Source: Ochotona princeps
Taxonomy: Eukaryota
DNA: 64,000 bases
Reading direction: 5' to 3'
Assembly: GCF_030435755.1 (NCBI RefSeq)
Contig: NC_080843.1
Span: 68,798,485-68,862,484 of the forward strand
Shown: in pieces, positions 14,270 to 49,333 of the stretch
How the letters are laid out: each line of letters begins with the position of its first letter
Position numbering within the stretch: position 1 is the stretch's first letter
Notes under the pieces: model-generated
Databases searched by the model: none
What the model saw: only the letters and a program-made list of their open reading frames with translations
Told to the model about the DNA's origin: nothing
Position numbers and translations under genes: made by a program

Positions 14270-16335
14270 TGAACCATGTAAGAGCTGAGTCGGGTGGTGG
14301 ACCAGGCAGTACTGGGCTGTAATATCCAATGGTAAGAGCCAGAATGGGTATGGGCCAGTCGGGCAATGCTGTCATACCTGCCAGGACAGGAGGTGGGACA
14401 AGGCAGGCTAGAAAAAGAACCCACCAGCACCTGCAAGATCTTCAACTGGGAGGCGACCTGACAGAGGAGCTATGGGAACTTCTCTGTCAGGATATAGTCT
14501 CTGCTGGTAAGTGCAAGAACCTCAGCTGGGAGCAGCCCAGATCAGGCCAGGTTACAGTACCCACCACCATACATGTGGCTCAGGTCTGCGGGTGGGCCAG
14601 GCTATGCCAGTTCACAGCACCCACTGGCAGATGTGAGAACCAGGATGGGATATGAGACATGCCGGTTGGGCTGCAACACCAGCCAATTCACATTAGTGCT
14701 GAGACTGGGGACTGGCTGGGCTGGCCTAAGATAAAGCACGTATCAGCATGAGAGGTGCAGGTCAGGCTGAGCCAGGCTGCAACACCTGCTGGTGAATGCT
14801 GAGGTGAGATGGGCCATGCCAGACTGGACTGCAGAACACACTGGCATATGTAAAACACTGAAGCAGGGAGGGGGAGGGGAAGAGCCCAGCAGTGGGGCTA
14901 CAGGAACTCCCCTGTTGGGTCAGTGCTCACGCTGGTAAGTGTGAGAGCTAGAACCCAGGACAGACTAGGCTGGGCAGGGATACAAAGCCCGTTGGCCTGC
15001 ATGTGAGCTGGGTTAGGGAAAGAGCCAGGCTGAGCTAAGTGACCATATCTACTAATGTAGGAGCCAGAGTAAATGCAGACTGACCGGGCTTTGCCTCAGC
15101 ATCAGCTGGCAAGTGCAGGGAAAGGGGGTAAGTCCTGTCACTCTAGACCACAGAACCACCCGGAAAATGCAAGATCTGGGGCTGGGAGTGGGCTTAGTAG
15201 GCAAACTATGGGCACCCCTCTCAGGGGCTGTAGCTCCCACCAGTGAGCGTGAGAACCAGGACTGGGGGCAGGACTGGCTAGACAGGTGGTAGCATCCACC
15301 AGTGTGAGAGTGGGCTGAACAGTGGGGTAACTTGGGCTAAATTAGACTGCAGCAACACCCATTGGTGTCTAAAAGTCAAAAGGAATGTGAGACAGACTGG
15401 ACCAGTCTATTGCACATACTGCCATGCTAGGAACCATGGCTGGGAGCAGGCCTAGTGTGGGTTATTGGGAGTCACTCTGGGCTGTGGTTGCCACTAGTGT
15501 GTATTAGGGCTGCATGTATGGTGCGCAGGGTTGGGCTGGGCAGGAGCAGTCATTGGTTTGCTATGAGATAGGGCTGGAGACAGGACTGACCCATGTCAGC
15601 AACTACAGACACCAGTGTATGTGTGGGCTCATGCAGGTGACAGGCTGAGCCAAACTCCACACTGGCTGGCACACACAGGAGTCAGGTCTGGTCACCTCTG
15701 GTGAGGTTTCTTTGGATACCTCCACAGCTGGACCACTGGACTCAGAACTCCAAACATAGGATCTGTGCTCTGATCGTGGAGTGCATGTGTCATAACTGGG
15801 TCTCCTTGCTTGCTCAAGTCTGTGCAGCGGACGGCATGCCCAGATGCACATGAGGGTACATGACAGATCACTAAGGCCTGCAGAGCACAGCCAGTGCCAT
15901 GGCAGGGGTTAGAGGGCAGAACAAATTGGACAACTCTGCTGCCTCAGCTTGGATAGCAAGCATCTGGGTGAACTGAGACTCTGAGGTGTACTATGTCAGC
16001 CAGTGGAGCTTGGAAGGGTTTCCTCAACCTTGGAGCAATGAACTCAACCACACCTCAAAACTACTGGAACCACTTGATCAGACCCCTCGGAACATGCTCC
16101 ACCTCGGTGACCCTGGGATGACACTGAGTGGCCATCCCACATTGCCAGGTTAGATTGCTGGCTAGGATGTGGTTAGGAGGCTGGGTGTGGCCCTCTAACC
16201 CCTCCCCCTAGATATAGGAAGAAGAAAAAGAAAGTGGAAACAATTGTCTCACCCATTTTTCCCTATTCTGAGACCCTTCCCACCTTATTCAGTGGTCCCC
16301 ATGGGCATGCATCCTTGTCAACTATGTAAACATTA
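14270..16335 (-). repeat. Unclassified interspersed repeat family, copy 1 (inverted relative to the others), with internal ~115-125 bp tandem subrepeats at 14.27-15.7 kb.
   Basis: It is the reverse complement of 39270-40950. For example, ORF 15052..15240(-) and ORF 40357..40545(+) are 90% identical peptides, and 16020-16330 is the reverse complement of 39280-39600. Confidence 0.8.
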
Positions 16336-16623
16336 TAAAAAAAAAAACCACTTAGAAGATAAGAGACTATGATGCAGATTAATGCCTAGGCCTCCAACCT
16401 GGACCAAGATCATCCATGGCCACCAGGCCTAGTTCAAGCTTCTTGGCCTCCTAATTAGCCCGCCCTGAAGGCTGATTTTTGATCAGTCTGCTGGTGATAA
16501 TGCCAGACAGGGCTGTCTGGTTTCCTGGGGGAGCTTGGAGCTCCTTGCCCAGCATGCACACATAAGCGCTAGAATCCAAGAAGTAGCTTATGCTGTTGTG
16601 TTTCCAAGACCCACTGGACTTAC

Positions 16624-16761
16624 ATCATTGAGGCTGATGCTGTTCACAGGCTTGAGCAGCGTGTGCTCTAGGTGGCCCAGAGCTTCCGTCCACAACAACT
16701 CCACCAAGTCGCTCACCTCCGGGCTCAGAGGGCCGGCACCGATGACCTCCTCCAAAAGCAG
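16624..16761 (-). CDS. PARP4: PARP4 exon: LLLEEVIGAGPLSPEVSDLVELLWTEALGHLEHTLLKPVNSISLND
   Basis: Acceptor caccattgcag|CTG. Donor AATGAT|GTAAGT. Matches human LLLEEVMNSSTLSQEVSDLVEMIWAEALGHLEHMLLKPVNRISLND. Confidence 0.8.
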
Positions 16762-17713
16762 CTGCAATGGTGATACGAGAATGACTCACAATCAACCAGG
16801 CATCGTGTGTGAGCGGATGAAAACAGATCTGGGCCAATGAGCAGAGGTGAATGGTTCACCTTGGCCTGGTGTGACTGTGTGGACACAGCTGGACTGTGGC
16901 CCTCCAGGGTTCCCAGCTTGGTAGTGTTGGGGCCCTCAGACATTTTGGAAGATGCCAGGTCACTGTATCTTCCCTCCCGCCACTTCCTCCATACCCCTTT
17001 TCTAAATCTCTGATACTCGCCCCATCATCTCTATTCTCCTGCAATTTTTCTGCCTGCCTTTCCCTTTCCCCTCATGAGCTGCAGGCCTGTTACTGCCATT
17101 AAGCATAGGCCATCAGGGCTGATGATTCTTGCTCATGGCTAAAACTGTAACGTGGGTTTTGTTCACATATGCAGCCTATCTCATGGCTGATTCCTGCAGG
17201 CCCCGGTCCCCCAAGGGTTAACTCCACAGCTTAGCTTGTTTCTAAGGGGTAACAGAATGGGCGATCTTGGCCTAATGCATTTTAGCCCCTGGCTTGACTG
17301 CAAGTTACTCTTCCCTGCTTCCTCTTTGTTAAGATGCCCCCAGGGGAGCTTAGGAGTTGCTTGAGCATTGGGATAATACTGGGAGGGACTAGGCAGACTA
17401 TAAAAGATGCAGGCTGACCCCAAATAAACTTGGCATTCTGTTTACAAGAGTGACCCACTGCGTGTTGTCTTGTGTGTTGTCTGTTTGTAACCTTAGTCCC
17501 TCCGCTCGGCTCGGGGTACGCAGCGACGCGGGCGTTGCCGACAGGTTCCCGAACTGACTCCCCACTCTGCTTCCATACCTTTCTATGGGGTCACTTTTCC
17601 TTTTCCTAAATCCTGCTTTTCTGTCCTCCCAGTCTTTTAGGTGTAAGAAAGAAAACATTCCTATCAAAACGTTAAGTCAACAGCACAAAATAACGTGCAC
17701 AAATCAATCTTAC

Positions 17714-17863
17714 GGCTTGCAGTTTTTCAGATGCTAATTGGGTGGCTTGGGGTGTGAAATGTTCCCTTAGTAGAAATCCTTGCTTCTTCAGTTCTTCAAT
17801 GTAATTTTCGTAGTATTCACTTGCATCTGCAGAGGTTTTCTTGACAGCGAACTGTCTTCTAGT
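17714..17863 (-). CDS. PARP4: PARP4 exon: TRRQFAVKKTSADASEYYENYIEELKKQGFLLREHFTPQATQLASEKLQA
   Basis: ORF 17672..17896(-). Acceptor aattcacag|ACT. Donor AAGCC|GTAAGA. 150 nt in phase 0. Near-identical to the human segment TRRQFAIKKTSEDASEYFENYIEELKKQGFLLREHFTPEATQLASEQLQA. Confidence 0.85.
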
Positions 17864-47640: not shown

Positions 47641-47939
47641 CACTCCAAACACCTTCCCTTGGTGTTGATATTAATCTCTGACGACCCTGTGTGTGAAAAG
47701 GGGTATGTCTTTACTGTTTAAATTTCTGTTCAGTGCCAGGAGGGTGAGCATATTATTAATATTTGTGTGTCTTTTTAAAAAATCTTTGGTGTGTGTGTTT
47801 AGACCTAGTTAAGTGACATGCATGTTTGTTTGCCTCTAAGTCACTGTTTTTTATTTTCTTTTGGTTGTATGTATATTTTATGTTGTCACTTTAATAAGGT
47901 TAAAATCTCGAATTGTTCTGCGCTCTCTGCCTCCTTGCC

Positions 47940-48075
47940 AGTCTACACACAGCACAGTTCCCCTTCCCCTTACCTTTTCCTTTTCCTCCAATTTCTTTCC
48001 TTCCTCCAGTTTCTTGTTCTTTCTGGGCATCCTCTCATTTCCGCCCCCGCCCCATCCCCACCCCAGCTGCCCGGA
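47940..48075. repeat. Polypyrimidine (CT-rich) low-complexity tract
   Basis: ttccccttccccttaccttttccttttcctccaatttctttccttcctccagtttcttgttctttctgg…ccgcccccgccccatccccaccccagc. Essentially purine-free on the plus strand. Confidence 0.7.
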
Positions 48076-48261
48076 GCTGTTCCCATGGGTGTTACCATGA
48101 TCTTTGTTTTGCTAAATTCAGAGGTCTGTTCTCAGTTCTCATCCTTCAGCATTCAACAGTGGCTCCTTCTTCCTCAAACACCCTCTTGTCTCCAAGGCAT
48201 ATGCTCAGTGCCTTAGTGGTGACATCTGGTGGCAAGGCTTTTTGTTGTCGTTGTTGTTGAT

Positions 48262-49333
48262 AATCTTTACATAGTTGATTAGGGTGCAAAGGGTCAAGGG
48301 CTAGAGGAAAGTGGGTAAGACCATTGTTATCACATTCTTTTTTTTTTTTCCCTTTTTGTATCCTGCGGAGAGATAAGGGGAAAAAGCCACACCCAGCCTC
48401 CCAACCATCCCAGGGTCCCCCTCCGAGGGTCCTGCTCAAGTTCAACACTTCTGAATTGCTGCCCATCTCACCAGTCTAAGCATGATGCAATCTCTCCAGA
48501 ATTCCCTGGCTGACATAGTCCATCTTAGAGTCTCCGTTGCCCAGATTTTCACTGCCAACCCTTGGCTGGGATAGTTGATCCATTTATTCTGTCTTCCAGC
48601 CTCTGTTCTGGTACCAGGTGTCCTTTGCAGGTTCTAATATACCATCATACCCTCCATGTACAATTGGCTATGCTGTCCACTGTTTCATTTAAACCACTGA
48701 AGAAGCCCAGCTCTGGACACAAGCATTCCACAATCAGGCCATGGACCCTGCAATTTTCTGCATGGTTTAAAGTTCTGAGTCCACTGGTTCAATTGGGGGA
48801 TCCCCAAAGAAACCTCAATGAGGCGATCCCAGACCTGATTCTTGTGTGTGTTTACCAGTACAGGGACTGGCACAACGTGTTGCCCCGATCAGCTTACATG
48901 CACACTGGTGATTACAGTTGCTGGGTCAGTTCATCTCCATCCCTATCCTCTATGCAAACTAACAGTGTTGCAGCCCAGCCCAGCCCAGCCCAGCCCAGCC
49001 CAGTTCTACCCACCACACACTCGGCCACATAAACCAGTGGGAGCTGTAGCCTAGTCAGAGTGACCCGCAATAACCCCCACCAGGCACACCCCTGCCCTGG
49101 TTCCTATGCTTGCCAACATGTACCGCAGACTGGTCCAGTCTGAGCTATATCCCATCCAGCTCTCATACATGTGAATAGACCTTGAAACCTAGTTTAACCC
49201 AACTAGCCCCAATATCCAGCCCCACTATTCAGCCACTATACCTGCTGGCAGGTGCCACTCTGTCTAGCCCCGTCTGCCCTAGCCCTGGTTCTTGTGCTCA
49301 CCAGTCGGAGTGGCAACCTGAGAGGGAGGTGCC
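48262..49333 (+). repeat. Same unclassified repeat family, copy 4. The 3' end abuts the P2RX5 retrocopy. It contains a (CAGCC)6 run at 48971-49003.
   Basis: tacatagttgattagggtgcaaagggtcaagg… through …ggagtggcaacctgagagggaggtgcc is colinear with 29545-30720 and 39272-40390. Confidence 0.75.

Follow-up and report, generated by a model that had tools for sequence, protein, structure and literature searches.

All L1 families of the rabbit, which belong to the long interspersed nuclear elements (LINEs), have unusually long 3' untranslated regions (UTRs); the 19 published ones measure 1,201-1,581 bp without the tail (PMC8346653). The same survey of the rabbit mobilome gives a genome-wide LINE coverage of 15.4% (15.44%), places the peak of an old L1C2 expansion at 52.5 Ma with younger families active at <20 Myr, and describes no other poly(A) retroposon of comparable size (PMC8346653). 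Here we analyse a 64-kb window of the Ochotona princeps genome (contig NC_080843.1, positions 68,798,485 to 68,862,484) that contains PARP4, the 5' coding exons of CENPJ and a family of four repeats, designated copies A, B, C and D. An initial annotation of this DNA had left the family unclassified, with a long solo long terminal repeat (LTR) or a satellite-bearing element as the candidates, and had suggested that it was amplified locally. Once read on the other strand, all four copies are poly(A)-tailed non-LTR retroposons inserted by LINE-1-mediated target-primed reverse transcription (TPRT), and they are most probably the non-coding 3' UTR ends of lagomorph L1. Two of them, A and C, are an inverted pair in which an internal tract of near-identity is best explained by gene conversion.

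Each of the four claimed copies was used as a query in a self-BLAST of the window. The comparison gave one long antiparallel match, 14863-16347 against 40740-39249 (1,504 bp, 93% identity), which is the A-C diagonal on which the initial annotation had staked its inverted pair; the pair stands, and its identity exceeds the 85-90% given for it. Weaker colinear matches of 66-71% tie A and C to 29560-30979 and 48272-49333: both are 68-69% identical to B (30262-30979) and 66% identical to D (48506-49142), and B is 71% identical to D. Nearly all of the remaining self-matches are copies of a ~340-bp short interspersed nuclear element (SINE). A profile hidden Markov model made from the four copies matched those four alone, and no fifth copy was found in the 64-kb window, so the linked copies number exactly four, as had been proposed.

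Copy A (14223-16347, sense strand +) is the longest at 2,125 bp and lies within a PARP4 intron, antisense to the gene. Its inverted partner, copy C (39249 to ~40942, sense strand -), is at least 1,694 bp long, with a 5' limit that falls somewhere within 40942-41040. The other two copies form an older subfamily: B (29536-29921 plus 30262-30985, sense strand -), 0.5 kb upstream of the PARP4 ATG exon, and D (48243-49334, sense strand -; 1,092 bp). Copy B is split by a poly(A)-tailed SINE of 340 bp (29922-30261) that has its own 13-bp target-site duplication (TSD; TCAGATCTGATTC / TCAGACCTGATTC) and that inserted later. Relative to the other copies in the family profile, B is also without ~230 bp internally, its length equivalent being ~1,340 bp; a purine-rich simple repeat and a SINE adjoin it on the 5' side.

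The orientation of the family is given by its ends. When the copies are read in the direction of the initial annotation, a T-run directly precedes every one of them (A, gtggttttttttttttataatgtt/tacatagtt; C, ttttttctttgttattatattt/acatagtgg; B, aatttttttttttttaactaatc; D, tttttgttgtcgttgttgttgataatcttt/acatagtt), and this T-run is a poly(A) tail on the opposite strand. The terminus that had been called a shared 5' end is thus indeed shared, but the T-runs show it to be the 3' end. On the sense strand all four copies terminate in ...ACTATGTAAA-ATTAT followed by an A-run; copy A begins GAGCC... and ends ...ATTAT(A)n, with its terminal motif ACTATGTAAAC at 16321-16331 (+). The tail is pure in A (A11, 16337-16347, +) and in B (A13 on the - strand, seen as T13 on the + strand at 29537-29549), an interrupted A-run in C (- strand; 39249-39270 on the + strand) and degraded and interrupted in D (- strand; 48243-48270 on the + strand). 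All copies reach the 3' end of the family profile, in which they start at positions 2, 25, 591 and 835.

Copy D is flanked by a 14-bp TSD that is identical at 13 of its 14 positions (GTGGCAAGGCTTTT at 48229-48242 on the - strand, partner GTGGCGAGGCTTTT at 49335-49348), each half of which abuts the element directly. Its score of 11.5 compares with a null of 8.4 +/- 1.0 and is reached by 0.3% of shuffles (p~0.003). The pre-insertion target on the sense strand, TTTTTT/AAAAGCCTCGCCAC (AAAAGCC...), is an L1-endonuclease-type site. For copy A a putative TSD of ~14 bp with one mismatch and one indel is formed by AAAACACTCAGAAG at 14209-14222 (+) and AAAACCACTTAGAAG at 16344-16358, the latter overlapping the end of the tail; it is rightly placed, starts AAAAC and is preceded by CC. 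A second candidate for A at 14851-14863 (AAAACACTGAAG) was rejected, since the A-C homology runs on upstream of it.

The common 3' end, the poly(A), the variable 5' truncation and the ~14-bp TSD at a TTTT/AAAA site identify the four copies as L1-mediated TPRT insertions. The L1 endonuclease would have nicked a TTTT/AAAA-type site, and the A-tail of the RNA would have primed reverse transcription from the 3' end; synthesis that halted at variable points would yield a common 3' end with differing 5' ends, and second-strand repair would leave the ~14-bp duplication.

Homology ceases at the element ends in every copy pair, and the flanks are unrelated. The Kimura two-parameter (K2P) distance between B and D (0.34) is smaller than that of either to A or C (0.46-0.50), which separates two subfamilies or age classes, the older B/D type and the A/C type. 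Unrelated flanks, own TSDs (D and, more weakly, A), different truncation points and the presence of two subfamilies establish the four copies as independent, dispersed insertions; the flank homology and shared junctions of a local amplification are absent. The claim of an unusual density fails as well. Together the four copies occupy ~6.0 kb, or 9.4% of the window, against the LINE coverage of 15.44% in rabbit, so the density is ordinary; the LINE-like content of the window otherwise consists of two old ORF2 remnants only.

From 5' to 3', copy A is made up of ~1.43 kb with 13 degenerate ~60-nt units (14276-15655, +), a unique region of ~0.69 kb, a polypurine tract (16217-16241, +; ~110 nt before the tail), the terminal motif and A11, and the sense strand is purine-rich. 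The units were counted with an iterated profile of ~54 nt, which finds a further eight in C (39941-40942, -, the most distal at 40895-40942), three in B and four in D, with 0-1 matches in Markov-shuffled copies and none in the other 58 kb of the window. They are restricted to the 5' two-thirds of the element, measure ~54-60 nt, are highly decayed (about 60-80% identity) and follow each other at irregular spacing, some adjacent units at 59-61 nt. In shift autocorrelation the peaks, at 22 and 60 nt, are marginal (z~4; null maximum ~3-4.5). Tandem Repeats Finder (TRF) reports no tandem array within any copy, except a (CAGCC)6.6 microsatellite in D (48971-49003) that has arisen within one of its repeat units. 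The internal array of 115-125-bp subrepeats that had been described is therefore real as to the subrepeats, but these are decayed, irregularly spaced units of ~60 nt, about two of which make up 115-125 bp. Alignments of 190-240 bp at ~60% identity (best E = 2e-11) link the 5' 640 bp of A to the body next to it; since the match is one of direct degenerate repeats on the same strand, twin-priming or inversion of the 5' part of A was rejected. No open reading frame (ORF) of at least 110 amino acids (aa) lies within any copy on either strand, in agreement with the earlier statement that a long ORF is lacking, and Rfam and tRNA scans of the four copies found no small-RNA module.

Copies A and C form a mosaic. 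Their near-identical tract (A 14882-16141, +; C 40715-39455) holds 36 differences in 1,260 columns (35 substitutions and one 1-bp indel; 2.9%, K2P 0.028), against a mismatch of 38% outside it (two-breakpoint likelihood scan, 2 x dLL = 259). The last 233 bp of the tract (A 15910-16142) contain no A-C difference at all. Directly after this perfect run the mismatch is ~51% over 16142-16215 (~70 bp), and over the last 120 aligned bases it is 15.8% (K2P 0.179; Fisher p = 7e-9 against the tract). This 3'-terminal part of A (16142-16335, +), although diverged, is homologous to C 39454-39261, because both copies align there with B and D. On the 5' side of the tract, C 40731-40864 aligns to A 14527-14670 at 62% (z~5), not colinear with A, and the distal repeat unit of C follows beyond it; C is thus still family sequence on both sides, which makes the tract internal to both elements. 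Two sister insertions that decayed neutrally and uniformly could not have given rise to such a mosaic. Assembly collapse was rejected as the source of the tract, which has 36 differences, not none.

Three views of the nature of the family have to be weighed. The first, local amplification of either an unclassified endogenous retrovirus represented by long solo LTRs or a satellite-bearing element, agrees with a copy size of 1-2 kb, the lack of an ORF, the existence of internal repeats and the four copies within 35 kb. A solo LTR would, however, share both ends and have TG...CA termini, a 4-6-bp TSD and no tail, whereas the copies share one end only, carry A-tails in all four cases, lack TG...CA and show, where the TSD is clear, 14 bp at an L1 endonuclease site; with unrelated flanks, two diverged subfamilies and decayed ~60-nt units in place of a TRF array, this view is extremely improbable. 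The copies are far better accommodated as non-coding 3' UTR ends of lagomorph L1, and this is most probably what they are. The lengths of D (1,092 bp) and B (~1,340 bp equivalent) are compatible with rabbit L1 3' UTRs of 1,201-1,581 bp, and the two divergence classes fit the published old and young rabbit L1 families. Rabbit L1 3' UTRs are also said, in work by Demers and colleagues from 1989, to include internal direct repeats, the number of which varies. The impression that the family is not L1-like was understandable yet misleading: since the 3' UTR takes up 1.2-1.6 kb, a typical rabbit L1 copy truncated to 1-1.5 kb has no ORF2 and does not resemble L1. Several observations nevertheless weigh against this assignment. 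Copy A at 2,125 bp (~545 bp above the 1,581-bp maximum) and copy C at 1,694 bp or more exceed the published UTRs, and the extra 5' part of A consists of more repeat units, not of ORF2. A tblastn search with human ORF2 found nothing in or beside any copy, while the same search detects an old remnant at 38563-38321 (39% identity); Pfam likewise gave no ORF2 remnant in the 5' parts of copies A, B and C, a result of little weight because its positive control, a known ORF2 remnant, was missed too. No canonical AATAAA precedes the tails, no TSD is recognisable for B and C, and the candidate TSD of A, taken by itself, lacks significance (p~0.3 for a scan of 1.3 kb; ~0.04, as a rough estimate, when scaled to the 150-bp boundary zone). 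The long non-coding part of A and C means either that the unit array of their subfamily expanded or that the family is a separate non-autonomous element. The latter would be a lagomorph-specific, L1-mobilised composite retroposon of SVA-like build, with a ~60-nt array resembling a variable number tandem repeat (VNTR), a unique 3' module and poly(A). It would account for at least 2.1 kb (A) and at least 1.69 kb (C) of non-coding sequence, above all 19 published rabbit L1 3' UTRs and with no ORF2 remnant, for a repeat-unit region that differs in length and content between A and C, and for the absence of any trace of the family profile from 87 kb of the squirrel PARP4-CENPJ locus; this absence is also consistent with the lineage specificity suggested earlier, for which it is weak evidence. 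We consider such an element unlikely, because the survey of the rabbit mobilome contains none (PMC8346653), because no small-RNA-derived or other recognisable 5' module emerged from the Rfam and tRNA scans, because internal repeats in an L1 3' UTR can expand, and because the prior is strongly contrary, L1 3' ends being the commonest 1-2 kb poly(A)-tailed, 5'-truncated repeats of mammals. Two conserved patterns of the family gave 0 matches in viral, metagenome and genome contig collections, and the longest sense ORF and all six frames of the conserved 3' 1.2 kb gave 0 matches in a collection of 5.8 billion proteins; rabbit non-coding DNA is evidently absent from these collections. The published L1Oc primers, which are bisulfite-converted and aimed at the L1 5' end, are uninformative for these 3' fragments.

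The A-C tract is most likely the product of non-allelic gene conversion across the 23 kb that separate the inverted copies: after their insertion A and C would have exchanged sequence, with the internal 1.26 kb of one being overwritten. A was probably the donor and C the recipient: the tail of C is interrupted, no TSD is recognisable for it and its flanking units are harder to make out, and A retains a clean tail together with a candidate TSD. The published rabbit substitution rate of 1.99e-9 per site per year would place the conversion about 5-7 Myr ago, and gives an age of about 45 Myr for the 3' flank. Two points count against conversion. Exchange between copies only ~80-85% identical is inefficient, and the mosaic could have been inherited from recombinant source elements, A and C then being two recent independent insertions from related mosaic sources whose identity boundaries they retain. 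L1 lineages are known to recombine, the tail of A is an intact A11, and the mosaic could equally pre-date insertion, with nothing in the window contradicting it. We regard this origin as a genuine possibility, if a doubtful one, since it calls for two breakpoints in the source and for a rare type of element to have inserted twice, recently, at sites 23 kb from each other, and since the interrupted tail, missing TSD and poorly recognisable flanking units of C are unlike an insertion of <7 Myr. The tract is, moreover, as CpG-depleted as the old copies (observed/expected ratio 0.12), which also speaks against young insertions; this depletion would be non-discriminating if the master elements were CpG-poor, and it is uninformative as a clock.

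The gene context bears on the possible consequences of gene conversion between A and C. The window encodes a protein with BRCT and PARP catalytic domains, the best matches of which are PARP4 of lemur, sloth and horse (70-75% identity). By tblastn and protein search the gene lies on the - strand, with its ATG exon at 29056-28925 and further exons down to 2833. The search for PARP4 orthologues returned no lagomorph, and the squirrel locus was used for comparison. Copy A sits in the intron between exons 16761-16618 and 13552-13376, which measures 3.07 kb here versus 1.3 kb in squirrel; squirrel intron and intergenic DNA does not align at the insertion sites. An exon matching human aa ~112-134 was not detected by tblastn within 26717-23475, being too diverged, too short or absent. 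The 5' coding exons of CENPJ occupy 55381-62360 (+; 61% identity over 556 aa to human CENPJ), and the two genes stand head to head with 26.3 kb from ATG to ATG, an arrangement that is the same in squirrel (28.6 kb).

Two CpG islands lie in the interval between the genes. In that at 44041-44820, nearer to CENPJ, is the one non-coding block conserved with squirrel (77% identity over 223 bp; window 44277-44494), and that at 33461-34940 has a positional equivalent in squirrel without alignable sequence; the squirrel islands between PARP4 and CENPJ lie at 9841-10600 and 18881-19700 of locus L001. Most likely the island at 33.5-34.9 kb is the promoter of PARP4 and that at 44 kb the promoter of CENPJ. 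Copies A and C bracket the first seven PARP4 coding exons and probably the PARP4 promoter as well, as had been noted; if PARP4 starts at the 44-kb island instead, they bracket exons only. The bracketed part codes for aa 1-295 of ~1,700, so that it cannot be called the 5' half of the gene. In squirrel, the N terminus of the PARP4 model (P0006) is extended by a long stretch read from the CpG island (L001 10001-10500), an extension that is almost certainly a prediction artefact, and a similar open frame in the window island (44274-44822, -; …LRHLRMSRHNRRGSRSPAPGQ…) reflects DNA conservation.

The order and orientation of the PARP4 exons are intact on both sides of A, and no inversion is fixed in the assembly. 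The earlier suggestion that the A/C pair is a substrate for inversion by non-allelic recombination is plausible, but the substrate is a weak one, with a single perfect block of 233 bp in 1.26 kb at 97% identity. A block of this length comes close to the minimum for efficient homologous recombination in mammals. The conversion tract would be indirect evidence of past interaction between A and C: if gene conversion is the true cause, the two have physically recombined, and a crossover arising from the same intermediate would leave the 5' part of PARP4 inverted and inactive. Short-read assembly and read mapping could also plausibly go astray at the near-identical patch.

Other repeats are scattered over the window. 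The SINE taken from copy B as a query has 34 matches at 72-92% identity, about 20 of them near-full-length, which makes it the dominant repeat of the window; two copies are adjacent at 20880-21568. The two LINE-1 ORF2 remnants (38563-37895, -, and about 46829-46588, -) are C-terminal, old, stop-ridden and SINE-interrupted, the first with 39% identity to human ORF2 over 82 aa, and both are unrelated in sequence to the four-copy family. A (GA)29 microsatellite occupies 47390-47447, 0.8 kb upstream of D. About 110 bp past the TSD of D begins another L1-mediated insertion, an intronless, frame-disrupted processed pseudogene of a P2X receptor (49461-50246, +; best match human P2X5 aa 2-296; Pfam P2X_receptor E = 3e-13).

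The result is mainly a correction, in that an apparently unclassified repeat resolves to LINE-type insertions once read on the other strand; these are routine insertions that the initial annotation had read on the wrong one. It also explains why rabbit L1 fragments look unlike L1, as with a 3' UTR of >1.2 kb most truncated copies contain no coding sequence. There is a slim chance that this is an SVA-like element outside primates, specific to lagomorphs and not described before; the A/C pair would then show such elements driving gene conversion, and potentially inversion, across the 5' end of a gene. We know of no SVA-type composite element in lagomorphs. With the primate SVA, LAVA and PVA elements the family shares a non-coding nature, poly(A), an L1-type TSD, frequent 5' truncation and a short-unit internal region of differing copy number followed by a unique 3' module; it differs from them in that neither a hexamer-repeat or SINE-derived 5' module nor a defined full-length form is seen, and the units are highly decayed (about 60-80%) and not a live VNTR.

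As an inverted pair tens of kilobases apart with an internal tract of higher identity, A and C resemble the F8 int1h/int22h and FLNA-EMD inverted repeats. Repeats that cause recurrent pathogenic inversions measure 1-10 kb at >99.9% identity and are far stronger substrates than the 1.26 kb at 97% found here. The closest counterparts of the family itself are the rabbit L1 elements (L1Oc; L1A-L1D of PMC8346653; the Repbase 3'-end entries L1A_Oc, L1B_Oc and L1C_Oc). The published UTRs are shorter than copies A and C, in which there is no ORF2 remnant, no canonical AATAAA stands before the tail, and the likeness is structural. In common with rabbit L1, the copies have poly(A), a common 3' end, variable 5' truncation and a ~14-bp TSD at TTTT/AAAA, a sense strand rich in purines that has a polypurine tract close to its 3' end, a long non-coding 3' region of the reported order (1.2-1.6 kb) and a division into older and younger subfamilies.

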